From assembly GCA_017609465.1 (NCBI GenBank), contig JAFCDX010000002.1, positions 11,881-75,880 on the forward strand: a stretch of DNA of 64,000 bases. Direction: 5' to 3'. Source of the DNA: Candidatus Woesearchaeota archaeon (GTDB lineage: Archaea > Nanobdellota > Nanobdellia > SCGC-AAA011-G17 > JAFCDX01). Below the pieces are notes generated by a model. The model made no database searches, was not told the origin of the DNA, and saw only the letters and a program-made list of their open reading frames with translations. The translations under genes were made by a program, and so were the position numbers. Positions 7,956-32,149 of the stretch are shown in pieces (positions within the stretch are counted from its first letter, which is position 1; every line of letters starts with the position of its first letter).

Positions 7956-7978
7956 AGGGAAGAAAACACAATTGTAAC

Positions 7979-8455: not shown

Positions 8456-8486
8456 TTTAGAAAAATTGTATTTAAAAACATATTGT

Positions 8487-12693: not shown

Positions 12694-12720
12694 AGAATAA
12701 TATATTTTTTAGGATATATT

Positions 12721-13614: not shown

Positions 13615-13615
13615 T

Positions 13616-14317: not shown

Positions 14318-14348
14318 TTTATTTCATTGTTTGATTATATTTATAAAA

Positions 14349-15752
14349 TTACCTAAACATGGTTATTATACCTGCTTTTACCATATTATATATGTTTTTT
14401 GGAGGCAATTTTCTCAATTTCCACACTCTTTTAGACATATATTTTGGTCTTAAATAGAATCTTCTGTATGCCTTTTTTACAGTATCTTTTATTTCTTCCA
14501 CAGATCTTCCTTCTGGAACATATACAATCTCGTCCCATGTTGTGAAATTATCCCAATCATCCTTTAATATTTTACCTTCTTTTTTGCATATTTTGTGCAA
14601 TTCTGTTCCTGGAAAGGGTGTACAGATTGGAAATTGCACATAATCTAAGTCAATATCTATTGCTTGTTGTATTGTTTTTTCAGAATCTTCCTTTGTTTCT
14701 GTTGGCAATGCAAGAATAAATGAACCCCAAGTTTCTATTCCCACTTTCTTGCATAAATCAACAGCCTTTTTCTGTTGCTCCAATGTAATGTCTTTTTTTA
14801 TTAAATTTAGCAATCTTTGTACTCCAGATTCTAATCCAAAAAATATCAAATAACATCCAGCATCTTTCATTTTTTTAAGAAGCTCTTCATCAACTAAATT
14901 AACTCTTGTAAAACAAGACCATTCAATATCAAATTTTTGATTAATCATTTCATCACATAATTCAATTATTCTTTTCTTATTTGCTGTAAATGTTTCATCA
15001 TAGAATTGTATACTATCTGCATTGTATTTTGTTATTAATTCTTTTATTTCTTTTATTATGTTTTCTGTACTATTATACCTGTGTGTCTTTCCAAAGGTTA
15101 AATGTCCTGAACAATATGCGCATCTAAAAGGACAACCTCTTGATGTTATTATGTTTAATGTTTTCTTTCCTCTTAGATTAGCAGAAGAATGATATTTTTC
15201 CATTGGAAATAAATGTCTTGCAGGTTTTGGGAGAATGCTAATATCTTTTATCAATTCTTGTGGCTTGTTTATTATAATCCCTTCATTATTTTTCCATGCT
15301 AAACCATCAACTTCTTTGAAGTCTTTATTTTTTTCAATTGCTCCAAGAAGATTGTTAAAAGTTATTTCTCCTTCACCATAAATAACATAGTCAATGTTCT
15401 CATTTTCAAGGCATTTTTTAGGTTCAAGAGTTGCATGCGCCCCTCCTAAAATAACCTTTATATTATTATCAAAATTTTTTGCTATTTCAGCTATTTTATA
15501 ACACCTATTCATATTTGTGCAAAAAGTCTGCATTCCAATAATCTCTGGATGAAATTCCTTTATTATTTTTTTAATATCATCAAAATTATAATTCATTGCC
15601 TCAGAATCCACAACTTTTACTTCATGGTCTTTTGACTCTGACATTGCAGCAACATAAGCAAGTCCCAATGAAGGGTGCAAAGTACCTATATCCTTTAATT
15701 TTCCATATCTCTCCTTCTGGCTTGTTGGTGGTTCTATAAATAAAACTTTCAT
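14349..15752 (-). CDS. Cobalamin-binding (class B) radical SAM enzyme, paralog 4
   Basis: KVLFIEPP..., LGGAHATL, SRGCPFRCAYCS. 4-nt overlap with the upstream GT-C gene. Confidence 0.85.
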   Translation of the reverse strand: MKVLFIEPPTSQKERYGKLKDIGTLHPSLGLAYVAAMSESKDHEVKVVDSEAMNYNFDDIKKIIKEFHPEIIGMQTFCTNMNRCYKIAEIAKNFDNNIKVILGGAHATLEPKKCLENENIDYVIYGEGEITFNNLLGAIEKNKDFKEVDGLAWKNNEGIIINKPQELIKDISILPKPARHLFPMEKYHSSANLRGKKTLNIITSRGCPFRCAYCSGHLTFGKTHRYNSTENIIKEIKELITKYNADSIQFYDETFTANKKRIIELCDEMINQKFDIEWSCFTRVNLVDEELLKKMKDAGCYLIFFGLESGVQRLLNLIKKDITLEQQKKAVDLCKKVGIETWGSFILALPTETKEDSEKTIQQAIDIDLDYVQFPICTPFPGTELHKICKKEGKILKDDWDNFTTWDEIVYVPEGRSVEEIKDTVKKAYRRFYLRPKYMSKRVWKLRKLPPKNIYNMVKAGIITMFR

Positions 15753-17530: not shown

Positions 17531-17551
17531 AAATATCTACTTTATTATTGT

Positions 17552-17559
17552 TTTATAAA
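17552..17559 (-). promoter_or_regulatory. Candidate TATA box for the 17530 minus-strand operon
   Basis: Palindromic TTTATAAA lies 22-29 nt upstream of the start at 17530. Consistent with a leaderless or short-leader archaeal promoter. Confidence 0.4.
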
Positions 17560-17597
17560 CCTTATTGAATTATGTTATAATATTTTATTTCGTAAGC

Positions 17598-17605
17598 TTT
17601 ATATA
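17598..17605 (+). promoter_or_regulatory. Candidate TATA box for gmd
   Basis: TTTATATA centred about 26 nt upstream of ATG 17627, with no Shine-Dalgarno in between. Suggests a leaderless transcript. Confidence 0.4.
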
Positions 17606-17626
17606 TTTTACTTATAAAATACACCT

Positions 17627-18733
17627 ATGACAGAGTCAAAAACAGCAATGATTACTGGTATTGGAGGGCAAGATGGTTCCTATTTAACTGAATTTTTATT
17701 AAAAAAGGGGTATAAAGTTAGAGGGATTATAAGGAGAGGGAGCTATCCGAATACTAAAAGAATAGACCATTTAATAGAAAAATATGAATCTTTTGATAAT
17801 AAGGGAGAACTTAGTATAACTTATTCTGATCTTACAGATGCAAGTAGCATAAGAAATGCAATTGAAATGTTTAAACCAGATGAAATTTATAATCTTGCAG
17901 CTCAAAGTCATGTTGGGATTAGCTTTACTAATGGAATTAGTACATTTGATATTAATGCAAGAGGAGTTTTTAGAATTTTAGATACAATAAGAAATAAAGG
18001 GATTAATTGTAAGTATTACCAGGCTTCTTCTAGTGAAATGTTTGGTATTTCTCCTCCACCTCAAAATGAGAGCACCCCTATGTTGCCTCAAAGTCCTTAT
18101 GGGATTGCAAAATTGGCAGGATATCATATAACTAAGATGCATAGAAATGCTTATGGGATGTTTGCATCAAACGGAATTTTATTTAATCACGAATCTCCAA
18201 GAAGAGGAGTAAATTTTGTTACAAGAAAAATAACAAGGATATTTACAGAGGTAATTTTAGGAAAAACAGATAGAATTGTTTTAGGAAATCTTGATGCAAA
18301 AAGAGATTGGGGTTTTTCTGGAGATTATGTTGAAGCTATGTGGAGAATATTACAACATAATGAACCTGATGATTTTGTTATTTCAACAGGAGAAACTTAT
18401 ACTATTAGGGATTTTCTGAAAGAAGTTTGTAGAAATGTAGATATAAATTTGGAATGGAAAGGTACGGGTGTTGATGAGATAGGATATGATACAAATACAG
18501 GAAAAACTTTGGTTTCTATAAATCCTTATTATTTCAGACCTGCAGAAGTTCCTGCATTATTAGGTGATTCTACCAAAGCAAGAGAAATTTTGAAATGGAA
18601 ACCAAAAGTAATGTTTAAGGATCTTGTAAATATGATGTTGAAACATGACTTAGAGGAGAGAGGTAATGAAATTAGAGGTAGACCTGTTTCCTTAGAGGAA
18701 GCAAAAGAATTAGCTAGTAAATTGAGGAATTAA
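17627..18733 (+). CDS. gmd: GDP-mannose 4,6-dehydratase
   Basis: MITGIGGQDGSYLTEFLLKKGYKV, SSSEMFG, YGIAKL (YxxxK), NHESPRRG. These are diagnostic Gmd blocks. Confidence 0.9.
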   Translation: MTESKTAMITGIGGQDGSYLTEFLLKKGYKVRGIIRRGSYPNTKRIDHLIEKYESFDNKGELSITYSDLTDASSIRNAIEMFKPDEIYNLAAQSHVGISFTNGISTFDINARGVFRILDTIRNKGINCKYYQASSSEMFGISPPPQNESTPMLPQSPYGIAKLAGYHITKMHRNAYGMFASNGILFNHESPRRGVNFVTRKITRIFTEVILGKTDRIVLGNLDAKRDWGFSGDYVEAMWRILQHNEPDDFVISTGETYTIRDFLKEVCRNVDINLEWKGTGVDEIGYDTNTGKTLVSINPYYFRPAEVPALLGDSTKAREILKWKPKVMFKDLVNMMLKHDLEERGNEIRGRPVSLEEAKELASKLRN

Positions 18734-18734
18734 A

Positions 18735-19820
18735 ATGGAGAGCATTGGATGGTTTGAGCCTTTTCTTGATAAGGAGGATATGGAATCTGTTAAATCGGTT
18801 GTTGAATCTAATTTTGTTAATGAAGGGAAAAAGACAAAAGAATTTGAGGATTTGATTTGTAAGAGATTAAATGTTAAATATGCAATTGCAACTACAAATG
18901 GAACTTCTGCAATTTATTTAGCATTAATGGCCTGTGATGTTGGTTCTGGAGATGAAGTTATGGTTCCAGATATGACTTTTATAGCTACAGCTAATGCAGT
19001 TAAAATGACAGGTGCTAAAGTTGTTTTGTGTGATATAAATAGAAAGGATTTTACAATTTCTATTGAAGATATCAAGAAAAAGATAACTGATAAAACAAAA
19101 GCAATAGTTCCTGTTGATATTTTTGGAAGAAGCCCTGATTTTGAAGAATTAAAAAAAATAGCTAAAGAAAAAGACATTAAAATAATTGAAGATGCTGCAG
19201 GTGCTTTGGGATCAAACATTAATGGAAAATATATGGGAACAATAGGGGATTTGGGGGCAATATCTTTTGCACCAACAAAAATAATAACCACAGCACAAGG
19301 AGGAGTTGTTTTAACAAACAATGAAGAATTAGCTTTAAAAGTAAGAAAATTAAAAGACCATGGAAGAGAAAAAAGATCTGACAAAACTCACCCTGAATTT
19401 GGTTTTAATTTTAAATTTAATGATGTTTGTGCAGCTATAGGAATATCTCAAATTAATAAATTAGATGATAGAATAAAACATGTTAATAATATTAGGAGAT
19501 TATATGAAAAAGAACTAAATAATGTTGGTGATATAGAAATCCCTCCTATGGATATTAAAAAAGGAATTGTACCCTTATGGACCGATATACTTACATCAAA
19601 AAGTAAAGAATTACAAGAATATTTACTTAGTAAAAATATACACACTAGAAAATTTTGGGTGCCAATACATAAGAATAATCCATATTTGGATAATGATAAT
19701 TTATATCCTATATCTAATGAGGTTTATAAAAAAGGTTTGTGGTTGCCCGGAGGACCAACATTGGATTTGGATAATGTAGTAAAAATATGTAAACATATAA
19801 AAGAATTCTATAATAATTAG
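18735..19820 (+). CDS. DegT/DnrJ/EryC1-type PLP sugar aminotransferase (GDP-perosamine synthase-like)
   Basis: Fold-type I sugar aminotransferase blocks (TNGTSAIYLAL, EDAAGALGS, ISFAPTKIITTAQGG with the PLP lysine). Directly follows gmd with a 1-nt gap. Confidence 0.8.
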   Translation: MESIGWFEPFLDKEDMESVKSVVESNFVNEGKKTKEFEDLICKRLNVKYAIATTNGTSAIYLALMACDVGSGDEVMVPDMTFIATANAVKMTGAKVVLCDINRKDFTISIEDIKKKITDKTKAIVPVDIFGRSPDFEELKKIAKEKDIKIIEDAAGALGSNINGKYMGTIGDLGAISFAPTKIITTAQGGVVLTNNEELALKVRKLKDHGREKRSDKTHPEFGFNFKFNDVCAAIGISQINKLDDRIKHVNNIRRLYEKELNNVGDIEIPPMDIKKGIVPLWTDILTSKSKELQEYLLSKNIHTRKFWVPIHKNNPYLDNDNLYPISNEVYKKGLWLPGGPTLDLDNVVKICKHIKEFYNN

Positions 19821-20449
19821 GTTTTTTTACCCTCTTCAAATATACCTCTTTCTTTTATTTCATAAACCTCTTTTTCTATATGAGGAATATCAAATTTTTC
19901 ACATAATTTTTTTCTATAATCTTGGTCTTCAACAAATTTTTCATAAATTACTCTATGAAAATTATTTGGATATTCTTTCTCAATTTCCTTTATTTGTGAC
20001 CATGCATTTTTTATCTTTTTTTCTGCATGGTCTTTGTCCTTGGCAAATTTCTGCCTTACTTGGCTTTTTACAGTTGCATCAAGATTTCTTCTAATTTCAA
20101 TAAAATGAGTTTCGTAACCTAATTTTTTCATTAATTTATACATCTTTTTTGCATCTGATTTTGCTCCCCATAATATGCTTTGCGGAAATCCCCTCCTCCA
20201 TACAACTAGATTAATTGGAGGTTCAGGATTTGTGTAATCCAATAATTGTTTATGGCTTCTGCTTCCAAAACATCCGCAATTAACCAGAAATCTTTGTAAC
20301 ATTCTGTTACCTGAACTCTCTGCAGCTATTATAATAAATGCTTTTCCGTTTCTTGTGTTTTTATGAGATATTAATAACCTTAGATTTAATAGGCCTTTCA
20401 TAAGAATATTGTATGATACTTTTCTGATAAAATTAATTATCTTACTCAT
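19817..20449 (-). CDS. Hypothetical protein, weakly sulfotransferase-like
   Basis: FIIIAAESSGNRML resembles the PAPS 5'-phosphosulfate loop and RRNLDATVKS resembles the 3'-phosphate motif (RNPxDxxVS). Similarity is weak. Confidence 0.3.
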   Translation of the reverse strand: MSKIINFIRKVSYNILMKGLLNLRLLISHKNTRNGKAFIIIAAESSGNRMLQRFLVNCGCFGSRSHKQLLDYTNPEPPINLVVWRRGFPQSILWGAKSDAKKMYKLMKKLGYETHFIEIRRNLDATVKSQVRQKFAKDKDHAEKKIKNAWSQIKEIEKEYPNNFHRVIYEKFVEDQDYRKKLCEKFDIPHIEKEVYEIKERGIFEEGKKT

Positions 20450-20450
20450 T

Positions 20451-20858
20451 TTATTTAGGGATTATTGAATTTTCAACCCTAAAGGTGTCTGATTCATAGT
20501 CCTTTCCTCCTCTCTTTCCTTCGCTAAACACTATAAATTCATTCTCTTCTAGAATTCTTAATGCGTGTATTTCATTTGGGGGGGTTGTTACTAAATCATA
20601 TTCTCTTGCTATAACATATTTTGCCGGTTCATCTGAACCTAAATGTTTATACCAATATTCTAATGATCCCTTTGTCATTAGCATATGCTGTTGTGCATCT
20701 TTATGATAATGATTTCCTCTTATTTCTCCTTTTTTGGATTGTATTATTGCTACATGTTTTATAATTTCATCATAAAATATATCTGCTATTGTTCCTCTTT
20801 TATCCCTATGTAATTCAAGAGGGTCTTTTATATCCTTTAATATATTTCTTATTTCCAT
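20451..20858 (-). CDS. RmlC-like cupin (NDP-sugar epimerase / 3,4-ketoisomerase-like)
   Basis: HRDKRGTIADIF and IRGNHYHK motifs, as in RmlC/FdtA/WxcM-type cupins. Confidence 0.6.
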   Translation of the reverse strand: MEIRNILKDIKDPLELHRDKRGTIADIFYDEIIKHVAIIQSKKGEIRGNHYHKDAQQHMLMTKGSLEYWYKHLGSDEPAKYVIAREYDLVTTPPNEIHALRILEENEFIVFSEGKRGGKDYESDTFRVENSIIPK

Positions 20859-20896
20859 TTTGATTTTTGTATATATTTTATATATAAACTTTTTTG

Positions 20897-22114
20897 TTAG
20901 GAAGGTAATGAAATAAATTTTATGTTTGGATTTATTTCATGAAGCTTTTCTTTCAATATATGAGATATATTCCAAGATAGGATTAGAGCATATACATCAT
21001 TATATCTTGAAAAAATATCATCTCCAACTATTGGTATTCTTGTTGCAGGAGTATATTTTCCTTTTTTATGTTCTGAAGCATCTGTAACATAGTCAATTAC
21101 TTTATTATCTAATGAATAAAAGTTAAGAAAAGTATTTCCTTTTGCAGCAGCTCCTACCCCTATTATAGGGAATCCTTTATTTTTTGTTTTATATATTTCT
21201 TCCAAGAAAATATTTCTTTTTTCCAATATTTCCTTCATAAACTTATGATATGTTTCGGGTTCAAAAGTTTTATTTAATTCTTCTTTTTCTATCATGACTT
21301 TCTCTTCGAGACAATCTTCTACAACTTCATTTTTGTTTTGTGCTATTATTCTTAAAGATCCTCCATGATAATCTACAATTTCTGAAGAAATAATTTTCAT
21401 ACCTGCATTTTCTAATAGACTTTTTGAGGATTTAACAGTGAAATAAGTTACATGTTCATGATATATTTGATCAAATTTTTTATTTTCTAATCCAATATAC
21501 CAATATGGCAATTCAAATACAAATTTTCCATCCTTAGATAAAAGTTGAGATACTGACTTTGCAAAATTTAGTGGGTCATTAGAATGATTAAATACATTAT
21601 TTGCAACAACCAAATCAGCATTTCCACATTTTTCAATTATTTCATCTTTTATTTTTTCATCAAAAATCCCTGTAAAAGTTTCAATTTTACGCTCTTTTGC
21701 CAAATTTGCCATATATTCTGAAGGATCTACACCAACCACACAATATCCTTTTTTAAGAAATTGCTCTCCAAGATATCCGTCATTTGACCCGATGTCTACT
21801 ATGAAACCCCCTTCTTTAAGATTCACTTTTTTCGCAACCTCTTCTGCATAATTTTCCCAATGATCTCTAGCAAATTTTGAATTTGATGAAGTGTATGAAT
21901 AATCATGGCTAGAATATCTATCTTCTGGGTCTGTAATACATCTTAACTGTATATTTCCACAATCAGAACATAAGTCACATATGAGGGGATAAATTTTATC
22001 TGCTTCACCATACCTAGATTTTGGAATAAATGTATCTGCAAATGGATGAGACCCTAAGTCTATTATCTCTTCTATATCTTTTGAATTACAAATTAAACAA
22101 CTATTTCTCATCAT
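20897..22114 (-). CDS. NDP-hexose C-methyltransferase-like (Zn-ribbon + class I MTase + C-methyltransferase C-terminal domain)
   Basis: N-terminal CLICNS...CSDCG zinc site, IVDIGSNDGY motif I, long C-terminal Rossmann-like domain (IIGVGAAAKG) as in TylC3/Coq-type sugar C-methyltransferases. Confidence 0.7.
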   Translation of the reverse strand: MMRNSCLICNSKDIEEIIDLGSHPFADTFIPKSRYGEADKIYPLICDLCSDCGNIQLRCITDPEDRYSSHDYSYTSSNSKFARDHWENYAEEVAKKVNLKEGGFIVDIGSNDGYLGEQFLKKGYCVVGVDPSEYMANLAKERKIETFTGIFDEKIKDEIIEKCGNADLVVANNVFNHSNDPLNFAKSVSQLLSKDGKFVFELPYWYIGLENKKFDQIYHEHVTYFTVKSSKSLLENAGMKIISSEIVDYHGGSLRIIAQNKNEVVEDCLEEKVMIEKEELNKTFEPETYHKFMKEILEKRNIFLEEIYKTKNKGFPIIGVGAAAKGNTFLNFYSLDNKVIDYVTDASEHKKGKYTPATRIPIVGDDIFSRYNDVYALILSWNISHILKEKLHEINPNIKFISLPS

Positions 22115-22533
22115 TTTTTTATAAATTTTTTATCTTTTTCTTTTCCATTATAAGGTCCATTCTTAAATTCATAGATTAGCGTATTATCTTCAAGAACTTC
22201 TAAAGAATGACCTCCCCTTAATCCTACAAAACAATCTCCCTCACCTAAAATTGTTTCACTTATTTTTTCATCATTTAAATCATAAAACTCTACTTTTGCC
22301 TTTCCTTGGATTAAAACTAATGCTTCCTGTGTGTATTCGGTTGTTCTTTTTTGGGGTAGATGTTTGTGGGGTGGAACTAGGTTTCCTTTATTCTCTTTAA
22401 GAGTTCTTGCTTGAAAAACCTCTATGGTATCTGTTAAATCAAATCCACGATATTCTTGATTTAAAATATCTTCCTTTCTATAAACAAAATCTAATAAAAC
22501 TTCTGGTTTTATATTTGAATATATTTTTTCCAT
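22111..22533 (-). CDS. Cupin-fold protein (WbuC-like)
   Basis: PPHKHLPQ...EALVLIQGKAKVEFYD cupin core. 4-nt overlap with the downstream C-methyltransferase. Confidence 0.5.
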   Translation of the reverse strand: MEKIYSNIKPEVLLDFVYRKEDILNQEYRGFDLTDTIEVFQARTLKENKGNLVPPHKHLPQKRTTEYTQEALVLIQGKAKVEFYDLNDEKISETILGEGDCFVGLRGGHSLEVLEDNTLIYEFKNGPYNGKEKDKKFIKK

Positions 22534-22610
22534 TTTTTATTATGCTTTGAACTAATTTGTTACTTCTCTATAGTTAAGTATAGGATAAACTTATAAATAT
22601 TTACATTTTG

Positions 22611-24116
22611 TTATTTATTAATTTTTAATCTATTCTTAACTAATTCTATAAGTTTTAAATCTTCTTCATCAAATACTTTAGTTATATTTAATAATAATAT
22701 ATAAAGTACTCCTGGAATTGAAAAAACAATAACTATTTTAATGATATCATTAAATTGAATTAAGGATAAAGCAAAATAAAGTGGAATCAAAAGTAATATT
22801 ATTAATATTGGTTTTATTAGTTGTATTCTGTACGGTTGGATTTTTAATAATTTATAAGTATATATACTTGTCAATATACTGAATGTTATGATGGATATTG
22901 ATGTTGCTATTGCAGCGCCATTAAGGTTATATTTTTGTATTAAAATGTAATTTAATATTATATTTAATATTATTACGATAAAAGAACATTTAAGATTTAT
23001 TCTTGTTTTTTCTAATGAATTAAAAACTCCTATATTTGCAGTTACAAATATCCCAAGAAAATAACCAATTGTTAAGATTCCAAAACTTGTAGCCCCCCCA
23101 ATATATTCCACCCCAAACAAAATTTCTATTATTTCTCTTCTGAAGATTATAAAAGGAATAATTATTGGCAAGGTTATTATAAATATCCACTTTGTTGTGT
23201 TATTATATATTAATTTTATATCATTTATCTTTTTTTTAGCATACAAAGAACTTAATATTGGAATGAATAACGCAGCAAATGCAGTAGGAATAGTATTAAT
23301 TAATCTTGCAGTTGGTAACGATGTATTGTATATACCGACTACATTCTCTGGTCTAAAATAACCTAACATGATATTATCCGTCCATGCAAATAAAGTTATT
23401 AATATCCCTGAGATTAATAATGGAAGAGAAAATTTTAGAATTCTCTTATCCATATTTTTAGATTTAATTTTCCTGTTGAATAAAGGAGTAATCTTTTTTT
23501 GTATAATTATAAATGCAACAATAGCACTAAATAAAAATGTGAGAATATAAGCTATGCTTACTCCAAAAAGACCATATCCCGCATATATTAAAATTATTGT
23601 TAAAATTAGTCTTATTAATCCTTCTCCAATGTTTTGTATATATACAAAATAGTTTATCTTCTTTAAAGATCTTATGGTGGCCAATAAGATTTGGGAGATT
23701 ACAAATAGAGGGATCCCAAAAGAAAATATTTTTAATATAGGTATTAATTTTTCATTATGAAAGAAATTATTTGAGATAACTTCAGAAAATAAAAAGATTA
23801 TTGCTAACATAAAGACACTTGTTAATATGCTTATTTTTAAGCCGGATAATATAATTCCCTTTACCTTTGATAGATTTTTTTTGCTCATATAATAACTAAC
23901 AAATCTCTCTACACCTTGATGAGAACCCAATAAAGATATAATCATTGCTAAGCTTGTTATTGATAATGCAATATTTATAATACCATACCCTTCAACTCCA
24001 ATATATCTTGCTATGATTACCCTATATCCATAAGTCAATATTTTTGATAGAATAAGTCCTATTAATAATATTCCTGCTCCTTTTACAATACTTGTAAAAT
24101 TATCCCTTTCTAACAT
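22611..24116 (-). CDS. Wzx-like oligosaccharide flippase (MOP superfamily)
   Basis: About 12-14 TM helices. The N-terminal SIVKGAGILLIGLILSKILTYGYRVIIARYIGVEGYG is typical of polysaccharide biosynthesis (Wzx/RfbX) proteins. Confidence 0.75.
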   Translation of the reverse strand: MLERDNFTSIVKGAGILLIGLILSKILTYGYRVIIARYIGVEGYGIINIALSITSLAMIISLLGSHQGVERFVSYYMSKKNLSKVKGIILSGLKISILTSVFMLAIIFLFSEVISNNFFHNEKLIPILKIFSFGIPLFVISQILLATIRSLKKINYFVYIQNIGEGLIRLILTIILIYAGYGLFGVSIAYILTFLFSAIVAFIIIQKKITPLFNRKIKSKNMDKRILKFSLPLLISGILITLFAWTDNIMLGYFRPENVVGIYNTSLPTARLINTIPTAFAALFIPILSSLYAKKKINDIKLIYNNTTKWIFIITLPIIIPFIIFRREIIEILFGVEYIGGATSFGILTIGYFLGIFVTANIGVFNSLEKTRINLKCSFIVIILNIILNYILIQKYNLNGAAIATSISIITFSILTSIYTYKLLKIQPYRIQLIKPILIILLLIPLYFALSLIQFNDIIKIVIVFSIPGVLYILLLNITKVFDEEDLKLIELVKNRLKINK

Positions 24117-24162
24117 TTTCTTCTAAAAAATATACTTATTTAAAATACTTATGTATTTATCC

Positions 24163-25338
24163 TTAAGATAAAGCCTCATCAAAAATCTCTTTTAGTTTCT
24201 TATTCCTGTTTTTTATATTAAATTCCTCTTTTATGGTCTTCAATGCACCTTCACTCAATTTTTCCATCAATTTTTCATCTTCAATTATTCTTTTAATACA
24301 ATTAAATATGTCTTTTGTAACTCTCTCATCAATTTGGTGCTTCCCTGTAAATCTTTTATCTCTTAAATTTGTAGGGTATTCAGGAACATTATAAGGCAGT
24401 TTTTCTGATTTTTTAATACAATAACCATTTATTCCATTTCTTACAACAGCATTCATCCCAGGTACATCCAAGGCGATTACAGGAAGGCCATAGGACATAG
24501 CTTCTATTGGAACCATTGCATTTGCGTCATGTCCTGGAAGTAATAAGATATCGGAATCCACATATAATTTTATTAAATCTTCAAAAGGTATTCTTTCTTC
24601 TATAAATTTAATGTTTTTAGAATTATATTCTTTTTTTATCCACGAAGGAACTTCGCAACGTATTGTAAACTCAACTCTTTTTCCAAATTTTTTCTCTATT
24701 TTTTTAAAGGCTTCTATTGCTATTACTCCCCCCTTTATATCAAAATCAAGTGGGTTTGAAGCAGAACCTATAAATAATATTTTTATTTTATCCTTTTTAC
24801 CTTGTTTTTTATTCACATCTTTTTGTTCAACACCTAATTTTACATATTCTATCTTGTCAGAGACTTTTTTAGAAAAATTTTCCTTTAATACTTCTTTAAA
24901 AAAAGGATTCCAAACAATTATCTTTTTGCATAAATTAGAGCTTAATTCTTTCTCAATCTTATCTTTTTTTTCTGTAAATTTTTTATAATTATATCCTATT
25001 ATTGATGTAGGTGTATCTATTAAATCCAAAATATATGGTTTTTTTGTTTGATAAGGAATTCTTGATGTAGCATATACCAAATCTGTATTTTTAGGTATTT
25101 TTTTAGAATATAATTTCTCAAATAAATTTGTATTCTTTATTATTGGCTTAAGAAATACATTGTAGATTTTTTTTATTAAAGGAGAATTTCTAGAATAAGT
25201 TAATACAGAATCCCTTAATTTTTGAGGAATTTCCAGAAATTCATAGCCTTCTGGGGGACTTTTAATTATTGATTTGTGTGCAAAATGGATACTAGGATCT
25301 ATGCAATATAAAAACACTTTTTTGTTGGGATGTGTCAT
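24163..25338 (-). CDS. Glycosyltransferase family 4 (GT-B fold)
   Basis: C-terminal LLLPGHDANAMVPIEAMSYGLPVIALDVPG...NGINGY (EX7E-type motif). Confidence 0.7.
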   Translation of the reverse strand: MTHPNKKVFLYCIDPSIHFAHKSIIKSPPEGYEFLEIPQKLRDSVLTYSRNSPLIKKIYNVFLKPIIKNTNLFEKLYSKKIPKNTDLVYATSRIPYQTKKPYILDLIDTPTSIIGYNYKKFTEKKDKIEKELSSNLCKKIIVWNPFFKEVLKENFSKKVSDKIEYVKLGVEQKDVNKKQGKKDKIKILFIGSASNPLDFDIKGGVIAIEAFKKIEKKFGKRVEFTIRCEVPSWIKKEYNSKNIKFIEERIPFEDLIKLYVDSDILLLPGHDANAMVPIEAMSYGLPVIALDVPGMNAVVRNGINGYCIKKSEKLPYNVPEYPTNLRDKRFTGKHQIDERVTKDIFNCIKRIIEDEKLMEKLSEGALKTIKEEFNIKNRNKKLKEIFDEALS

Positions 25339-25392
25339 TTTTGGTATTTTATATGATATATTTAAATAATTATCTATTTAAATTAATAAAAC

Positions 25393-25400
25393 TTATAAAT
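25393..25400 (+). promoter_or_regulatory. Candidate TATA box for the SxtJ-like/carbamoyltransferase operon
   Basis: TTATAAAT lies 21-28 nt upstream of ATG 25421, in a divergent intergenic region. Confidence 0.4.
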
Positions 25401-25420
25401 TTATCCAGAACCATCACATC

Positions 25421-25858
25421 ATGAAATCCAATAATATTAAGCATTTATCTCCTTTTATAAAAGGGAGTGGATTTTTATTATCTCTTTTATTGTTCATATT
25501 CCTACTTACCTTTTTTATCTCAAGATTTAGTCATTTTATTTTTTTAGTTTATATCTTAATAATTTTAATTTTATCTATAATATTCTTGTTTCTTGCGGGA
25601 ATTATATTTTATAAATCAAAAACAATATTATTATCAAGATTTTTTAGAGGATTTAAAAAATTTGGTAAAGTTATAACCACAATTGTAAATTCAATATTAT
25701 TGACGATACTTTATTTTGTAGGCATTGGGATTACATCTATTATTGGGAAATATATTTTTAAAAAGGATTTTCTTGAATTTAATACAAAAAAAGATTCATA
25801 TTTTATTAAAAATGAAGAAAGTAATAAGACAATAGATGAACATAGGAGGCTATTTTAA
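25421..25858 (+). CDS. SxtJ-like small membrane protein
   Basis: Three TM helices. The C-terminal part (FGKVITTIVNSILLTILYFVGIGITSIIGKYIFKKDFLEF...DSYF) matches the SxtJ family pattern as I recall it. Abuts a carbamoyltransferase, as that family usually does. Confidence 0.45.
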   Translation: MKSNNIKHLSPFIKGSGFLLSLLLFIFLLTFFISRFSHFIFLVYILIILILSIIFLFLAGIIFYKSKTILLSRFFRGFKKFGKVITTIVNSILLTILYFVGIGITSIIGKYIFKKDFLEFNTKKDSYFIKNEESNKTIDEHRRLF

Positions 25859-27604
25859 ATGTATATCCTCGGGATATCCTGTTTTTATCATGATTCCTCT
25901 GTAGCATTGCTAAAAGATGGAAAAATAATTGCCGCTGCAGAAGAGGAAAGATTTACTAGAAAAAAACACGATACTGGTTTTCCTATAAATGCAATAAATT
26001 TCTGCTTAAATTATGAGAATATAAAAATTAAAGATATAGATTATATAGGATTTTATGAAAAACCCTTTTTGAAATTTGAGAGAATATTGAGTCAACATTT
26101 AAATAATTTTCCAAGAAGTTTGAGGATGTTTGTTAAGTCCATGCCTAATTTAATAAATGAGAAAATAAGAATATCAAAGATTATAAGGAAAAAACTGAAA
26201 TATAAAAAAGAAATTCTATATATAGATCATCATCTTGCACATGCAGCATCTTCTTATTTAGTTTCTCCTTTCAAGAAATCAGCGATACTTACTATTGATG
26301 GAGTTGGAGAATGGGCAACTACAGCGTTAGGGTATGGGAAAGAGAATAAAATATTTATTGAAGAAGAAATAAGATTTCCTCATTCACTAGGACTTTTATA
26401 TACAGCAATAACTACATATCTTGGTTTTAAGGCAAATAATGATGAATATAAAGTAATGGGACTTGCTCCATATGGAAAACCGATTTATTTTGAGAAACTA
26501 AAAGAAAAATTAATTAAATTAGAAAAGGATGGTTCCTATAAATTAAATATGGATTATTTTGCATATAACTATAAGGAACAAATGTTTTCTGAAAAATTTA
26601 TAGAAGAATTTGGGACATCGAGAAAAAAAGAATCAGATATAACACAATTTCATAAGGATATGGCTGCTTCTTTGCAAAAATTATATGAGCATATATTATT
26701 TATGATTTTGAATTATTTATATAAAAAGTATAAACTAAAGAATCTTTGTATCTCCGGGGGGTGTGGCCTAAATAGTGTTGCAAACGGAAAGATATTAAAA
26801 AATACTTCTTTTGAGAATATTTACATACAACCAGCTTCCGGAGATGGAGGAACAAGCATAGGTGTTGTTTCTTACATCTATAATAGTATTCTAAATAATA
26901 AAAGAAATTTTGTAATGGATTCTGCTTATTTAGGTCCAGAGTATAATGATGATGAAATAAAGAATTTTCTAAATAAAGAAGAAATAAAATATAGTAAATT
27001 TCCCAATGAAGAAAGATTATTAGATCAAGTTTCTAAATTAATATATAATAATAATGTTATTGGCTGGTTCCAAGGAAGAATGGAATTTGGTCCAAGGGCT
27101 TTGGGGAATAGGAGTATTTTGTCGAATCCATGTAATCCAAATATGCAAGACATATTAAACTTGAAAGTTAAACATAGAGAAAAATTCAGACCATTTGCCC
27201 CTGTTATTTGCGAAGAGGATGTAAACAAATATTTTGATGGAGATAAAAAATTACAAATGCCTTCCTATTATATGTTGATGGTATACCCTATTAAGGAGGA
27301 AAAAAGAAAATTGATACCTGCTGTAACTCATGTAGATGGTTCTGGTAGATTGCAAGTATTAAATAAGAAATATAATGAATTATATTGGAGACTTATTAAA
27401 CAATTTGGTAAATTAAGCAAAGTCCCTATATTAATAAACACATCCTTTAATATTCGTGGTGAACCAATTGTTTGTTCTCCTAAAGAAGCCTACAAGTGTA
27501 TGATGGGAACAGGCATAGATTATCTTGTTTTAGGAAATTACTTAATTAAAAGAGATGATAATCCAAAACACATGTGGGATAGTGAAAAATATGCCAAAGA
27601 TTAA
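25859..27604 (+). CDS. Carbamoyltransferase (NodU/CmcH family), copy 1
   Basis: ILGISCFYHDSSVALLKDGKIIAAAEEERFTRKKHD, HHLAHAASS, EFGPRALGNRSIL, NTSFNIRGEPIV. Canonical NodU/CmcH blocks. Confidence 0.9.
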   Translation: MYILGISCFYHDSSVALLKDGKIIAAAEEERFTRKKHDTGFPINAINFCLNYENIKIKDIDYIGFYEKPFLKFERILSQHLNNFPRSLRMFVKSMPNLINEKIRISKIIRKKLKYKKEILYIDHHLAHAASSYLVSPFKKSAILTIDGVGEWATTALGYGKENKIFIEEEIRFPHSLGLLYTAITTYLGFKANNDEYKVMGLAPYGKPIYFEKLKEKLIKLEKDGSYKLNMDYFAYNYKEQMFSEKFIEEFGTSRKKESDITQFHKDMAASLQKLYEHILFMILNYLYKKYKLKNLCISGGCGLNSVANGKILKNTSFENIYIQPASGDGGTSIGVVSYIYNSILNNKRNFVMDSAYLGPEYNDDEIKNFLNKEEIKYSKFPNEERLLDQVSKLIYNNNVIGWFQGRMEFGPRALGNRSILSNPCNPNMQDILNLKVKHREKFRPFAPVICEEDVNKYFDGDKKLQMPSYYMLMVYPIKEEKRKLIPAVTHVDGSGRLQVLNKKYNELYWRLIKQFGKLSKVPILINTSFNIRGEPIVCSPKEAYKCMMGTGIDYLVLGNYLIKRDDNPKHMWDSEKYAKD

Positions 27605-28778
27605 GAATTTACTCATAAATTTTATTATATTATTTTTTTCTATATTGGTAGTTTTAATCTTGTTTGAGATTGGATTTAGGTTATTTTACCCTCAAAATAT
27701 TATAGATATAAAACAATTTGACCAATATGACAAATTATTAGGGTGGAAACTATTAAACAATTCAAACATAGAAATTAAAGGAAGAGGATTTGAAATGGAC
27801 ATAATAACAGATGATTTTGGTTTTAGAAACAACAAAACAAAATTTAATAATCAAAAAAACATTATATTAATAGGGGATTCTTATCTTATGGGTTGGGGGG
27901 TTCCACAGAATAAAACCTTCGCATATTTGTTTAATGAGAATATAAGAGGATATGATTTTATTAATCTTGGTTGTGGAGGTTATGGTACGGATCAAGAACT
28001 ATTATCATTATATGAATATGGTTTAAAATATAACCCAGAGATAGTTATATTATTTTTATTTTCAAATGATCTTTCGAATAATCTTGGAGAATGGAGTTTT
28101 TATGAGAGACCTTTATTTTTTTTAAATAATACAAATATTGAAAATTTTTATGAAAGAGATGTTGGTTCTGAAGAATTTATTATAAAGAAATTACCATGGA
28201 TAAAAAATGATAATCTTTTATTAGCATATCCTAAAATAAAAAAGGATACTAAAAAAACAACAGAATCTGGTTTATTTTATGAATTTAGGAAAATTTTATC
28301 ACAGAATTCTCATCTTTATAATTTTCTTGTTATAAATATAAAGAAATTATTCTTATCTGAAAACATTATAACAGATGATATTATTTTTAGTAAAAATACA
28401 AGCAGTAAGCTAAATTATTCAATTAATCTTACTTATTCATTATTAGATGAAATGGTTTATCTTAGCAAGGAAAATAATTTTACCCTAATAATTACTGCAA
28501 TACCAGAAAAATATGTTGTTGAGAGTAAAACAAGAGATTTATTTCTTAAACAATATGACTTATCTCGTGAAAACACAAATCTTTTGAGAGTAGATAATTT
28601 ACTTAAAAATTATAGTGAATCAAGGGGAATTAAATATATATCCTTATATTCTTCATTTGAAGAATACTATGACCCTAATCTTTTATATTTAGAATATGAC
28701 CTACATCTTAGTCCAGAGGGACATTTATTTGTATATCATTTGATCAGAGAAAAACTTATAAGAGAAAAATTATTTTAA
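27591..28778 (+). CDS. Membrane-anchored SGNH/GDSL-family hydrolase or acyltransferase-like protein
   Basis: Start moved to ATG 27591 (MPKIKNLLINFIILFF, an N-terminal TM anchor). Has SGNH blocks ILIGDSYLMGWG (I), GCGGYG (II), FSNDL (III) and DLHLSPEGH (V). Confidence 0.6.
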   Translation: MPKIKNLLINFIILFFSILVVLILFEIGFRLFYPQNIIDIKQFDQYDKLLGWKLLNNSNIEIKGRGFEMDIITDDFGFRNNKTKFNNQKNIILIGDSYLMGWGVPQNKTFAYLFNENIRGYDFINLGCGGYGTDQELLSLYEYGLKYNPEIVILFLFSNDLSNNLGEWSFYERPLFFLNNTNIENFYERDVGSEEFIIKKLPWIKNDNLLLAYPKIKKDTKKTTESGLFYEFRKILSQNSHLYNFLVINIKKLFLSENIITDDIIFSKNTSSKLNYSINLTYSLLDEMVYLSKENNFTLIITAIPEKYVVESKTRDLFLKQYDLSRENTNLLRVDNLLKNYSESRGIKYISLYSSFEEYYDPNLLYLEYDLHLSPEGHLFVYHLIREKLIREKLF

Positions 28779-28785
28779 AAATAAT

Positions 28786-29349
28786 ATGAATGAGATAAAA
28801 TTACATCTTGGTTGTGGAAAAAGATATATTCCTGGATTTGTACATATAGATATTGATAAACATCCCCATATAGATCATGTTAGGAATATCTTTGATTTGT
28901 CTATATTTGAAGATAATTCTGTAGATTTAATATATTCTTGTGGCACTTTAGAATATTTTGATAGAGAAGAGGTTGTAAATGTCCTGAAAGAGTGGAAACG
29001 TGTTTTAAAAAATAATGGAATTTTAAGATTATCTGTGCCTGATTTTGAATCTATAGTTAAGGTTTACAAAAAATACAATGATTTGGATGGCATAGGTATA
29101 TTAGGCCCTCTTTATGGAAGAATAAAAATAAATACAGAAGAAGGAGAGAAAGTTATTTGTCATAAAACAGTATATGATTTTAATTCACTTAAGAAATTAT
29201 TAGAAAGCGTTGGTTTTAAAAATGTTAGAAAATATGATTGGGAAAAGACTATACATAAAGATTATGATGATTTCTCACAAGCATATGTCCCTCATATGGA
29301 TAAAAAGAATGGGATATTAATGAGTCTTAATGTGGAGGCTGATAAATAA
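28786..29349 (+). CDS. Class I SAM-dependent methyltransferase
   Basis: LHLGCGKRYIPGFVHIDI, DLIYSCGTLEYF, GILRLSVPD (Methyltransf_11/23-like). Confidence 0.7.
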   Translation: MNEIKLHLGCGKRYIPGFVHIDIDKHPHIDHVRNIFDLSIFEDNSVDLIYSCGTLEYFDREEVVNVLKEWKRVLKNNGILRLSVPDFESIVKVYKKYNDLDGIGILGPLYGRIKINTEEGEKVICHKTVYDFNSLKKLLESVGFKNVRKYDWEKTIHKDYDDFSQAYVPHMDKKNGILMSLNVEADK

Positions 29350-29350
29350 A

Positions 29351-29506
29351 ATGAAAGATAATCTTTTATTACAGGTTTGGGGATATTTCAAAATTAGAAA
29401 GAAATGGTGGTTATTACCGATAATAATATTGTTTTTAATCATGGGATTCTTAATAGTTGTTTCACAATCTTCAGCTATATCTCCATTTATTTATACTTTA
29501 TTTTAA
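29351..29506 (+). CDS. DUF5989-like 51-aa membrane protein (absent from ORF track)
   Basis: ATG 29351 lies 1 nt after the previous stop. Translation is MKDNLLLQVWGYFKIRKKWWLLPIIILFLIMGFLIVVSQSSAISPFIYTLF*. The KKWWLLPI...SPFIYTLF pattern matches small proteins that accompany carbamoyltransferases. Confidence 0.6.
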   Translation: MKDNLLLQVWGYFKIRKKWWLLPIIILFLIMGFLIVVSQSSAISPFIYTLF

Positions 29507-29510
29507 TGAA

Positions 29511-31247
29511 TTATTTTTTAGATATCAAATAATTTCCCATTGTTAAATATTTGAGATCAGAATTCTCCATTGTATGCATAGCATCTCTCGGACTTAATAC
29601 CATTGGTTCTCCATGAAGATTAAATGAGGTGTTCAATACAGCATTTATCCCAGTAATTTTTCCGAACTCTTTTATTATTTTATAATAGCTAGGATTCCAT
29701 TTTTCTTTTACAATTTGGGGTCTTGCGGTTTTGTCATAAGGGTGAATTGCAGCTATTAATTCTTTTTTTGCTTTTTTTGTAGTGTCAAAAGTAATTATCA
29801 TATAAGGTGCGAATATATTTTTAGGATTTATGATATAATCTTTTTCTTTTTCTTCCATTATACTTGGTGTGAAAGGCATCCAAAAATCTCTTTTTTTTAT
29901 AGCTTCATTTATTATTCTTATATTTTCTATATCTGAAGGATTTGATAATATACTTCTATTCCCCAACGCACGTGCACCAAATTCTGAATTTCCATTAAGT
30001 CTTGCAACTACTTCATTTTTGGAAAGTAATTTTGCTATTTCCCTTTCTATATTTTTATGTTTTTCAATATGATATTTTTTATCATACCCATTTTGTTTTA
30101 AGAATTTATAAATTTCATCATCCTCATAATTAGGACCAAGATATAATTCCTCAAATGGGATTGGATCAAATTTTACATTATTATTTTCGCAATATTTTTT
30201 ATAACCAAAAAAAGCAGCACCTATTGCATTTGATTCATCTGCTCCACTTGGCATTGGAAAGATTGTTTTTACTTCATCCAATTCTGAGATCTTCATATTT
30301 AATTTAACATTCATAAAAACTCCGCCTGATAATGCTATGTCTTTTATTCCAGTATATCTTATTCCATTTTTTATCCATTTTATAACTAATTTCTCCAATA
30401 ATTTTTGAATCGAACCAGAAATATTGTCAAATCTTTCATATTTTAATATATTCTCAAGATAGTAACCTATGAAATACATTCTAAATTTACTTTTGAAAGT
30501 CAATCCATGTTTTTTATCCAACCAGATTAAATCTTTTATTTTATCATATGTTTTTTTTATTCCATAATCTTTGGCATATGGGGCCATCCCCATGACTTTA
30601 AATTCATGTTCTAGTGGTTTCATCCCCAATATTAATGTAGTCCAAGCATATAACCACCCAATAGAAGCTCTTTTATTTGTTTCAGCTATTCTTTTTAGAT
30701 TTTTTCCATTCCATATGTTTATTGTAGCACATAAATCATTCCCCTCTCCATCTAATGTAAAAATCAGAGTTTCTTTGTCTTTAGGTAGATTAAAGCAAGG
30801 GGAATATGCATGAGAAGTATGATGGTCTATTATTAATATCTTATTAGGATTAAAACCAAAGGTTTCGTATATATCTTTTTTCATATCTTCTCTCTTCTTA
30901 CCTACTTTTCTTTTATCAACTAATCTCTTTTTTAAATTAATGAAAGATTCTATTATTTTAAATTTGTAGATATATCTCATAAAACTTCTTTTCGATATTA
31001 AGTAATCTTTTAAATTTGTAGCAAAATAAGGATCTTTTATTACTTCATAATCATCTAATACAATATAATCAATATCTTCTTTTTTTAAGTTATTTTTGGA
31101 TAATATCCATTTTATAGATTCCATTGGTATACCAGTATGGTTTTTTATTCTAGAAAATCTTTCTTCACTTACACAATTTATTATTTTTCCATCTTTTAAT
31201 AAAGACGCCGTCGCATTATGTCCTAAATGTATTCCTATTATATTCAT
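29511..31247 (-). CDS. Carbamoyltransferase (NodU/CmcH family), divergent copy 2
   Basis: IIGIHLGHNATASLLKDGKIINCVSEERFSRIKN, DHHTSHAYS, EFGARALGNRSILSNP, NTSFNLHGEPMV. Confidence 0.85.
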   Translation of the reverse strand: MNIIGIHLGHNATASLLKDGKIINCVSEERFSRIKNHTGIPMESIKWILSKNNLKKEDIDYIVLDDYEVIKDPYFATNLKDYLISKRSFMRYIYKFKIIESFINLKKRLVDKRKVGKKREDMKKDIYETFGFNPNKILIIDHHTSHAYSPCFNLPKDKETLIFTLDGEGNDLCATINIWNGKNLKRIAETNKRASIGWLYAWTTLILGMKPLEHEFKVMGMAPYAKDYGIKKTYDKIKDLIWLDKKHGLTFKSKFRMYFIGYYLENILKYERFDNISGSIQKLLEKLVIKWIKNGIRYTGIKDIALSGGVFMNVKLNMKISELDEVKTIFPMPSGADESNAIGAAFFGYKKYCENNNVKFDPIPFEELYLGPNYEDDEIYKFLKQNGYDKKYHIEKHKNIEREIAKLLSKNEVVARLNGNSEFGARALGNRSILSNPSDIENIRIINEAIKKRDFWMPFTPSIMEEKEKDYIINPKNIFAPYMIITFDTTKKAKKELIAAIHPYDKTARPQIVKEKWNPSYYKIIKEFGKITGINAVLNTSFNLHGEPMVLSPRDAMHTMENSDLKYLTMGNYLISKK

Positions 31248-31300
31248 TTTAATTTATGTTAATGGACAATATTTAAATAAATATCTATTATTAAAATTTT

Positions 31301-32149
31301 ATGAATAAACCGTTGATTTCGATAATAATCCCTTCCTATAATGAAGAAGATTATATTAAAAAATGTATAAATAGTTTATTAAACCAATCATATGAGGTTA
31401 TTGAAATTATAGTTATAGATGATGGTTCGACAGACAAGACTTTTGAATTACTTAGAAATTATAAAAATAAAATAAAACTATTAAAACAAGATCATAAAGG
31501 GCCTGGAATAGCAAGAAATATTGGGGCTAAAAAAGCAAAAGGAAGGATATTAGTTTTTGTTGATTCAGATATGGAATTTGATAAAGATTATATCATGGAT
31601 TTAACAAAACCAATCATTAAGGGTGATGCATTTGGAACTATACATACTGTAGAAAAAGTGGCTAATAAAGAAAATCCATGGGCTATTTGTTGGGGAGATA
31701 GGTTTACTGTTGATAAAAATAATGAAGGATTTATTTATAGAGCAATCCTAAAAGATAAATTTTTTGAATACGGTCCTTTTGATCCAAATTTTGGATATGC
31801 AGATGATCAAACTATTTACTTTAATTCAGGGAAAAAAGCAAAAGGGGTGAAGGCAACATGTTATCACAATAATCCTTCTTCTTTAAAGGAAGTTTATTAT
31901 CAAAGCAAATGGATAGGGGCATCTTATAGAAATAAAATTTTAAAAATACCAATATTAAATATTTTATTTTCCTTATTTTTTATTTTCCTTATTTCTCCTT
32001 TTTTAATAATTAAAAATACAATTAAAACAATCCTAAGAAATAGGAGATTTAAATATATTTATTATTATCCTGTTTTTGGGTTAGTTAAATATTTTGGTAT
32101 GTTTGTAGGTATGATTAAAAGAATATTTTTGAAAAAGAATATAAAATGA
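31301..32149 (+). CDS. Glycosyltransferase family 2
   Basis: ISIIIPSYNEEDYIKKCINSLLNQ, IVIDDGSTD, FVDSDM (DxD); C-terminal TM helices. Confidence 0.8.
   Translation: MNKPLISIIIPSYNEEDYIKKCINSLLNQSYEVIEIIVIDDGSTDKTFELLRNYKNKIKLLKQDHKGPGIARNIGAKKAKGRILVFVDSDMEFDKDYIMDLTKPIIKGDAFGTIHTVEKVANKENPWAICWGDRFTVDKNNEGFIYRAILKDKFFEYGPFDPNFGYADDQTIYFNSGKKAKGVKATCYHNNPSSLKEVYYQSKWIGASYRNKILKIPILNILFSLFFIFLISPFLIIKNTIKTILRNRRFKYIYYYPVFGLVKYFGMFVGMIKRIFLKKNIK

Follow-up and report, generated by a model that had tools for sequence, protein, structure and literature searches.

What does a carbamoyltransferase achieve when its gene is accompanied by genes for two small membrane proteins and for a membrane-anchored enzyme of the SGNH fold? 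The question is raised by a group of six genes on contig JAFCDX010000002.1 of Candidatus Woesearchaeota archaeon (assembly GCA_017609465.1), of which we analyzed positions 11,881 to 75,880, a stretch of 64,000 nucleotides termed the window in the following and supplying all coordinates unless another locus is named. In our view the region is very probably a glycan carbamoylation cassette. With more reserve, we lean towards an operon which, together with a convergently transcribed second carbamoyltransferase gene, sits in a Wzx-type island and O-carbamoylates (and methylates) a surface glycan by a relay mechanism. That a relay over a tyrosine residue is indeed how the cassette works is a proposal we put forward tentatively. 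An original prediction made from the letters of the window without database searches had already drawn attention to these genes, and the map of open reading frames (ORFs) confirmed all six at the positions given there:

25421..25858, plus strand, membrane protein assigned to the SxtJ family as a divergent member (145 amino acids)
25859..27604, plus strand, CT1, class III O-carbamoyltransferase of the TobZ/NodU/CmcH type (581 amino acids)
27591..28778, plus strand (frame open from 27555; 407 amino acids as open), membrane-anchored SGNH-fold enzyme (Lipase_GDSL_2)
28786..29349, plus strand, small class I S-adenosylmethionine-dependent methyltransferase (187 amino acids; Methyltransf_11, E 3e-9)
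29351..29506, plus strand (frame open from 29330; 58 codons), DUF5989 (SxtK-type) single-pass microprotein (PF19451)
29511..31247, minus strand, CT2, second class III O-carbamoyltransferase, convergent to the operon (578 amino acids)

The end of the SxtJ-like ORF directly abuts the ATG of the CT1 gene at 25859, and this gapless arrangement as well as the NodU/CmcH-type nature of the second gene had been correctly predicted. Matches to Lipase_GDSL_2, Methyltransf_11 and PF19451 likewise agree with the SGNH protein, methyltransferase and DUF5989-like miniprotein expected downstream. The true starts of the SGNH and DUF5989 genes are likely at the internal methionines at 27591 and 29351, respectively, and with these starts the five genes from 25421 to 29506 would make up a tightly coupled operon with gaps and overlaps of 14 nt at most.

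CT1 features both Pfam domains of its family, Carbam_trans_N (PF02543, E 4e-92) and Carbam_trans_C (PF16861, E 3e-71), and so does CT2 (Carbam_trans_C, E 8e-58; Carbam_trans_N, E 1e-37), the two proteins being 34% identical. CT1 matches the carbamoyltransferase 7xb6 from the PDB with an E value of 3e-103 and GdmN, NovN and TobZ as well; both window enzymes align end to end with these four. The iron site of GdmN consists of H133, H137, D156 and D333 and is complemented by an N-terminal general-base histidine (PMC9633730). The equivalent residues are H124, H128, D147 and D329 with H11 as the general base in CT1, and H142, H146, D166 and D337 with H10 in CT2, such that the conserved histidines, proposed earlier as a check on both enzymes, are kept in the alignment, and the aspartates as well. 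Motifs EFGxRALGNRS, NTSFN and GEP are also retained in both, while the YrdC-side motifs of CT2 have diverged (KKRDFWMPFTP vs KHREKFRPFAP and HPYDKT vs HVDGS). Judged from these alignments, both proteins are full-length class III enzymes with intact metal sites and are predicted to form carbamoyl-AMP. Kae1-like and YrdC-like domains, the two-His/two-Asp iron site and the general-base histidine are shared with TobZ, GdmN, NovN, NodU and CmcH. These, however, are soluble enzymes tailoring antibiotics or Nod factors without membrane partners, whereas the subfamily to which CT1 belongs is almost always flanked by SxtJ and DUF5989. Against the NodU equivalog model CT1 scores 169 bits, the cut-off being 1000.

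In a FastTree phylogeny of 122 carbamoyltransferase sequences, CT1 is found in a 12-row archaeal-type clade (support 100) together with DPANN relatives and contig L117, which is described below. The clade forms one of three deep branches, of unsettled mutual order, in the partner-associated subfamily and is not nested within any bacterial phylum. The tree had been suggested as a way of recognizing horizontal transfer; with this topology no donor can be named. CT2 resides in a separate 26-row clade (support 100) with members from DPANN, the candidate phyla radiation (CPR) and Omnitrophota, its closest relatives being 50-57% identical. None of the 60 relatives searched contains a CT2 orthologue. 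Three other loci with CT2-type genes were examined, and in two of them these genes stand alone among glycan genes, free of small membrane partners. The second, clearly diverged carbamoyltransferase facing the operon is thus real and convergent, but it is not a diverged copy of CT1 and belongs to a clade that normally lacks small membrane partners. A convergent second carbamoyltransferase, here of a third lineage, is also present in genome G041. Because both L117 and G041 show such a pairing, the combination of a partner-associated carbamoyltransferase with a second, different one is a recurring arrangement. Two different carbamoylated positions or substrates, as suggested in the original prediction, are a reasonable conjecture. 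In genome G021 of a related archaeon (locus L013, 9495-12653, minus strand), the CT1-type enzyme comprises 1052 amino acids and carries an intein of about 410 residues, inserted between EYK and VMGLAP of the conserved motif formed by the two. The intein starts with Cys, contains LAGLIDADG-type blocks and ends with HN followed by Thr.

The microprotein encoded at the end of the operon matches PF19451 with E values from 2.5e-20 to 3.7e-20 and about 72 bits, well above the cut-off of 27 bits, so that the DUF5989 assignment passes the check by hidden Markov model (HMM) that had been recommended for it. The protein has a single hydrophobic segment (residues 24-54) and ends with FIYTLF-COOH. Of the 69 DUF5989 ORFs in the loci examined, 63 have strict FxYxxF as their last residues, and the tyrosine at position -4 is present in all 69; in background small ORFs such an end occurs in 3 of 4499 cases. 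DltX and bacterial MBOAT proteins bear an FXYXXF motif at their extracytoplasmic C-terminus, for example as FIYANF in PatA, and the motif tyrosine in DltX and PatA carries an acyl group to the serine of an SGNH enzyme (PMC12148441). From the basic N-termini of the two window proteins, the DUF5989 tyrosine tail and the SGNH domain are both predicted to lie outside. A literature search returned no paper mentioning DUF5989 or "SxtJ family".

The SGNH protein matches Lipase_GDSL_2 with an E value of 4e-12. A basic start is followed by one N-terminal transmembrane helix and then by the blocks IGDSY, GCGGYG, FSND and DLH. Blocks I (GDS), II (G), III (GxND) and V (DxxH) are all present and provide a complete Ser/His/Asn/Gly set, in which Ser97 and His372 are invariant across 22 homologues. 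An AlphaFold2 (AF2) model with a pLDDT of 84.6 matched SGNH folds, the best match in the PDB being CgnD (8a2n; E 1.5e-10, TM-score 0.48-0.64). The crocagin pathway, in which CgnD occurs, also has a carbamoyltransferase, CgnI. CgnD differs, however, in being a soluble and very slow leader-peptide hydrolase of 13% identity with no membrane anchor and no shown link to carbamoyl transfer, and this model-based similarity may serve as a lead, not as evidence for carbamoyl transfer.

With thresholds relaxed to E<=10, the 145-residue protein still does not match any SxtJ model of Pfam or NCBIfam. When 37 members of its family were aligned and examined, none matched PF19588 (0/37) or any model of NCBIfam, and a word-indexed homologue search returned the protein itself only. 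A full HMMER search, in contrast to the word-indexed one, retrieved 233 representative relatives in two size classes of about 80 and about 130-155 amino acids. For bacteria, we surveyed the loci of those 80 genomic relatives that matched CT1 best, almost all of them bacterial. Here, the family HMM of the window protein detects carbamoyltransferase neighbors of about 138 amino acids with E values down to 1e-13. PF19588 is present in one of these neighbors and in 1241 relatives of it, among which one cluster bears the name "SxtJ family membrane protein". When the window family was compared with the bacterial PF19588 neighbors by hhalign, a probability of 99.2% and an E value of 7.6e-20 resulted over the C-terminal 78 columns. 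The joint alignment exhibits a pair of helices at the N-terminus, then a basic amphipathic stretch that continues into a third helix, and a conserved tail of the pattern K.FL(D/E)...SYW...QF-end, in which the tyrosine is invariant (Y127, in S-Y-W/F; 34 sequences) and the terminal residue aromatic. The PF19588 model, with its 99 positions, spans the transmembrane part and not the conserved tail, which explains why the match was missed. A size typical for SxtJ (about 130-150 amino acids), three hydrophobic helices and the neighborhood of CT1 and DUF5989 are all found for the window protein. On the grounds of the profile-profile comparison and of the same gene position, we assign it to the SxtJ superfamily as a divergent member. 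The SxtJ label of the original prediction thus fails the HMM check named with it and stands by comparison of profiles.

In the AF2 model the helices of the SxtJ-like protein extend over residues 10-34, 39-65 and 70-111. A re-entrant last helix, built as helix-break-helix like that of PglC and leaving the basic tail in the cytoplasm, was considered and dropped, as AF2 gives one continuous helix (70-111). The fused form of 145 residues is found in the window and in genome G006. In six other loci, from DPANN relatives and from the Paceibacterota-labelled contig L117, the protein is split into a two-helix ORF of 64-69 amino acids and a following core ORF of about 80 amino acids (102 as called in L023) that holds one helix and the tail. 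Start/stop coupling links the two ORFs in most cases; in L023 they share about 80 nt:

L013, 12895-13098 and 12650-12898, minus strand, split SxtJ ORFs
L017, 8380-8583 and 8580-8822, split SxtJ ORFs
L018, 5508-5702 and 5699-5935, split SxtJ ORFs
L019, 2222-2425 and 2422-2661, split SxtJ ORFs
L117, 12159-12368 and 11914-12162, split SxtJ ORFs
L023, 1343-1552 and 1474-1782, split SxtJ ORFs

How widespread is this combination of genes? Of 61 genomes from the order of the host, 12 contain DUF5989, as do 77 of 401 genomes of the phylum sample, across 69 of 281 genera, so that the presence of the trio of carbamoyltransferase, SxtJ and DUF5989 in an archaeon, pointed out beforehand, is genuine but not exceptional. 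Among the relatives, DUF5989 accompanies CT1-type enzymes only, and genomes with other carbamoyltransferase lineages lack it. The statement that the three genes travel together in many bacteria is borne out by our survey, as SxtJ and DUF5989 ORFs adjoin the carbamoyltransferase gene in most of the 80 loci, in the order CT-SxtJ-DUF5989 and with DUF5989 ORFs of 49-60 amino acids. A gene for a membrane-anchored SGNH protein shares the locus with the SxtJ-like, carbamoyltransferase and DUF5989 genes in 10 of 11 DUF5989-bearing archaeal loci, usually beside the carbamoyltransferase gene, and is missing from L015; in the bacterial survey an SGNH gene lies within 5 kb in at least 34 of the 80 loci. 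More than 20 phyla of bacteria contain the four-part set, as do related archaea. The SGNH gene is therefore a regular fourth member of the set and not, as had been assumed, one of two extra genes splitting a trio. For the methyltransferase this view holds, as it is an accessory member of the operon, and a homologue adjoins the module in a single related locus, L020. The Pfam match of the methyltransferase covers profile positions 48-93 only, which had led to the idea of an N-terminally truncated protein; this was ruled out by the LHLGCG motif I at residues 7-12.

The same set is known from cyanobacterial saxitoxin clusters, where sxtI (carbamoyltransferase), sxtJ, sxtK and sxtL (GDSL lipase) follow each other in this order and where sxtJ and sxtK are called uncharacterized in the literature. 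A class III carbamoyltransferase, a member of the SxtJ family (divergent in the window), an SxtK/DUF5989 microprotein and an SGNH/GDSL enzyme occur together in both cases. The window differs by the gene order SxtJ-CT-SGNH-MT-DUF5989 with an inserted methyltransferase (MT), by an SxtJ protein scoring below the PF19588 model, and by its archaeal host and glycan island, in which no other sxt-type genes were seen. The comparison names the kind of system without explaining its function, as functions of sxtJ, sxtK and sxtL are themselves not assigned.

Two gene fusions from bacterial metagenome-assembled genomes bear on the topology of the set. In a locus from Pyrinomonadaceae (L078:5001-7220, plus strand), carbamoyltransferase and SxtJ are fused in frame to a protein of 739 amino acids, with PF19588 matching at 35 bits; this fusion places the N-terminus of SxtJ in the cytoplasm. 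In Myxococcota (L038:4992-7655, plus strand), a carbamoyltransferase, one transmembrane helix and a weakly GDSL-like domain are encoded in one frame of 887 amino acids, which puts the GDSL-like domain across the membrane from the carbamoyltransferase.

The layout seen in the window is repeated in L117:6089-13604 (same as L120; GCA_035453125.1), which carries the same seven-gene block. A gene for a GT4 glycosyltransferase is followed by the SxtJ pieces and by genes for a CT1-type enzyme, DUF5989 and an SGNH-like protein, and these are met by a convergent CT2-type gene with a GT2 glycosyltransferase gene behind it. Identities to the window proteins amount to 40% for GT4, 42% for the SxtJ core, 64% for CT1, 58% for DUF5989, 55% for CT2 and 47% for GT2. 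The SGNH-like protein is recognized through the SGNH profile only and shares about 25% over 147 residues with its window counterpart (E 0.41). A further 20 kb of L117 context holds glycan genes only. The contig bears the NCBI label Candidatus Paceibacterota and its CT1-type enzyme is nested in the DPANN clade, which points either to inter-domain transfer or to a mislabelled bin. The window copy is marked out by an SxtJ protein beyond the reach of the curated model and by a carbamoyltransferase of a second clade, located in a block whose synteny extends to a contig of putative CPR origin, and in addition by the absence of an MBOAT/AT3 protein and of a visible donor supply.

The cassette is enclosed by genes that point at a surface glycan:

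5340..32149, surface-glycan biosynthesis island of about 27 kb, enclosing the cassette
22611..24116, minus strand, Wzx/MOP-type flippase (Polysacc_synt, E 2e-31; also MatE and MurJ)
24163..25338, minus strand, GT4 glycosyltransferase, divergent from the operon (Glyco_trans_1_4 and Glycos_transf_1)
31301..32149, plus strand, GT2 glycosyltransferase, divergent from CT2 (Glycos_transf_2, E 1.5e-35)

Apart from GT2 and GT4 enzymes and the Wzx flippase, the island encodes methyltransferases, three B12-radical SAM enzymes, a GLF-like flavoenzyme, a PMT_2 GT-C enzyme, a GDP-mannose 4,6-dehydratase, a DegT aminotransferase, a sugar C-methyltransferase and a WbuC cupin. A membrane- and glycan-related setting is evident from these genes around the cassette, and flippase orthologues are located close to the module in L015, L020 and L022. 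Most likely, the product of the island is a carbamoylated, methylated surface glycan. Genes for the GDP-mannose 4,6-dehydratase, the DegT aminotransferase, the C-methyltransferase (three domains) and the WbuC-type cupin lie within 17627-22533. Going by their annotations, they may supply a perosamine-like sugar, namely a C-methylated 4-amino-6-deoxyhexose, as a candidate acceptor for the cassette.

The host is a Woesearchaeota-like DPANN archaeon with a very small genome, assembled to 0.80 Mb in 36 contigs and 89% complete. Archaeal markers are present (aTrm56, thermosome), and a protein from a relative in the same family bears the NCBI name Candidatus Woesearchaeota. Two Rfam tRNA matches in the window, at 54718-54823 (plus strand, 106 nt) and 61467-61589 (minus strand, 123 nt), are longer than a standard tRNA and were missed by ARAGORN; they are thus probably intron-bearing archaeal tRNAs. 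A protein of 595 amino acids encoded at 57325-59112 (minus strand) has a PIN domain at its N-terminus together with an ATPase domain of the T2SSE/PilT type.

How, then, may the cassette work? Neither PF03062 (MBOAT) nor PF01757 (AT3) was found in the 89%-complete genome, which leaves CT1 as the only acyl-activating enzyme available to the pair of SGNH enzyme and microprotein. The tyrosine motif, the predicted topology, the fusions and the lack of MBOAT and AT3 proteins together fit a relay in which a tyrosine carbamate connects the carbamoyltransferase in the cytoplasm with the SGNH enzyme outside. In this relay, CT1 would make carbamoyl-AMP in the cytoplasm, held at the membrane by the SxtJ-like and DUF5989 proteins, and these two would pass the carbamoyl group outward, bound to the C-terminal tyrosine of DUF5989 as an O-carbamoyl ester. 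The outward-facing SGNH enzyme would then take it over on its serine and place it on the flipped glycan, a step that would resemble the transfer of D-alanyl groups from DltX to DltD and of acetyl groups from PatA to PatB. CT2 probably acts in the cytoplasm, carbamoylating a different hydroxyl group of a sugar that is linked to a nucleotide or a lipid.

With DltB/DltX/DltD, PatA/PatB and OatA, the cassette shares an outward, membrane-anchored SGNH enzyme combined with a short C-terminal FxYxxF, and in DltX the motif even resides on a single-pass microprotein, like FIYTLF of the window DUF5989 (PMC12148441). Unlike these systems, the window genome is without a detected MBOAT/AT3 loader, the activating enzyme is an adenylate-forming carbamoyltransferase, the proposed cargo is carbamoyl and not acyl, and DUF5989 has no detectable homology to DltX. 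For want of an MBOAT or AT3 protein, we do not class the cassette as a member of the tyrosine acyl-shuttle systems, though by analogy it may work alike with a different loader.

A number of points weigh against this explanation. CT1 is cytoplasmic while the shuttle tyrosine is predicted outside, nothing resembling an MBOAT tunnel is evident, and a three-helix protein, going by its model, would be a poor conduit; moreover, this conduit candidate is split into two-helix and one-helix ORFs in several relatives. The side on which the SxtJ tail lies is ambiguous, as the tail is the most K/R-rich segment and yet the straight third helix of the AF2 model puts it outside; the charge distribution still favors a re-entrant helix with a cytoplasmic basic tail. 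The SGNH model is closest to CgnD and to generic esterases, with PatB ranking 46th, and has no special PatB- or DltD-like features. DUF5989 does not match the Pfam model of DltX, and its motif could be convergent or serve another purpose. In the 89%-complete genome, we found no carbamoyl-phosphate synthetase ATP-grasp domain (carB), no carbamate kinase (arcC) and no protein of the ornithine/aspartate carbamoyltransferase fold, which leaves the donor supply unexplained. Carbamate kinase is present in 2 of the 12 DUF5989-bearing genomes of the order (G041, G043), and several of the others are 94-99% complete. The donor possibly stems from a host or from an unrecognized enzyme, or else carbamate is adenylated directly by the YrdC-like domain. 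We know of no carbamoylated archaeal glycan and of no experiment on any SxtJ or DUF5989 protein.

The alternative that survives best, although we consider it unlikely, is that the SxtJ-like and DUF5989 proteins merely tether CT1 to the inner face of the membrane, where a lipid-linked sugar would be carbamoylated before flipping, comparable to the intracellular action of NodU and NolO on Nod factors. In that case the SGNH protein would be an esterase or acyltransferase in its own right, which might, for instance, trim or move O-acyl groups on the outside. This explanation draws strength from the fact that all characterized class III carbamoyltransferases pass the group of carbamoyl-AMP straight to the final acceptor in the Kae1-like pocket (PMC9633730). 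The fusion of carbamoyltransferase and SxtJ in L078 suits a tether, no membrane conduit is evident, and an SGNH gene was detected within 5 kb in only about 34 of the 80 bacterial loci and is missing from L015. A tether, on the other hand, requires neither two separate proteins nor a C-terminus that lies across the membrane and reads PFIY[TAS][LI]F with hardly any variation. Nor does it account for the recurrence of the SGNH gene in the module across domains and for the SGNH-like domain that is fused to a carbamoyltransferase via one transmembrane helix in L038.

With regard to CT2, decay or redundancy without a separate role would be suggested by the far lower score of its N-terminal domain (E 1e-37 compared with 4e-92 for CT1), by the altered motifs KKRDFWMPFTP and HPYDKT on the YrdC side and by the missing orthologues in the 60 relatives searched. 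We regard this as improbable, as the frame is open and full-length, the general-base histidine, both metal histidines, both metal aspartates and the motifs EFGxRALGNRS, NTSFN and GEP are all kept, the enzyme belongs to a large clade with 50-57% identity across DPANN, CPR and Omnitrophota, and the combination of a CT1 module, a convergent CT2-type gene and GT2 recurs in L117. It is highly improbable that the cassette tailors a secreted secondary metabolite in the manner of sxtI/J/K/L or CgnI/CgnD: although the only named SxtJ and SxtK members stem from a natural-product cluster and the closest solved SGNH fold, CgnD, belongs to a carbamoylated-peptide pathway, the genome measures only 0.8 Mb, all neighbors over about 27 kb are sugar-nucleotide, glycosyltransferase, flippase or GT-C genes, the ORFs scanned include no polyketide synthase, nonribosomal peptide synthetase, precursor of a peptide synthesized by ribosomes and modified after translation (RiPP) or other sxt-type gene, and the modules of relatives likewise adjoin Wzx and glycosyltransferase genes.

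The set of carbamoyltransferase, SxtJ, DUF5989 and SGNH genes is among the most widespread conserved gene neighborhoods without a function and is carried by about a fifth of the archaeal phylum, while sxtJ and sxtK have been unexplained in the saxitoxin cluster since 2008. Any explanation is constrained by the window copy, which works without MBOAT and AT3 proteins and has no visible supply of carbamoyl phosphate, and by the observation that the SxtJ core can be reduced to one helix and a tail with an invariant tyrosine. Still more tentatively than the relay itself, we propose that CT1, the SxtJ-like protein, DUF5989 and the SGNH enzyme represent a third envelope-acylation machine, loaded on tyrosine, independent of MBOAT and AT3 proteins and common to archaea and bacteria. 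In genomes lacking carbamoyl-phosphate enzymes, the donor of such a machine might be carbamate instead of carbamoyl phosphate. If this reading is correct, the genes sxtJ, sxtK and sxtL would gain a function. A tyrosine relay, if true, would carry the acyl-shuttle principle of the Dlt and Pat systems into a second domain of life, with a chemistry and an activating enzyme that are both new to it, and it would predict carbamoylated surface glycans in DPANN archaea, organisms that live attached to host cells.

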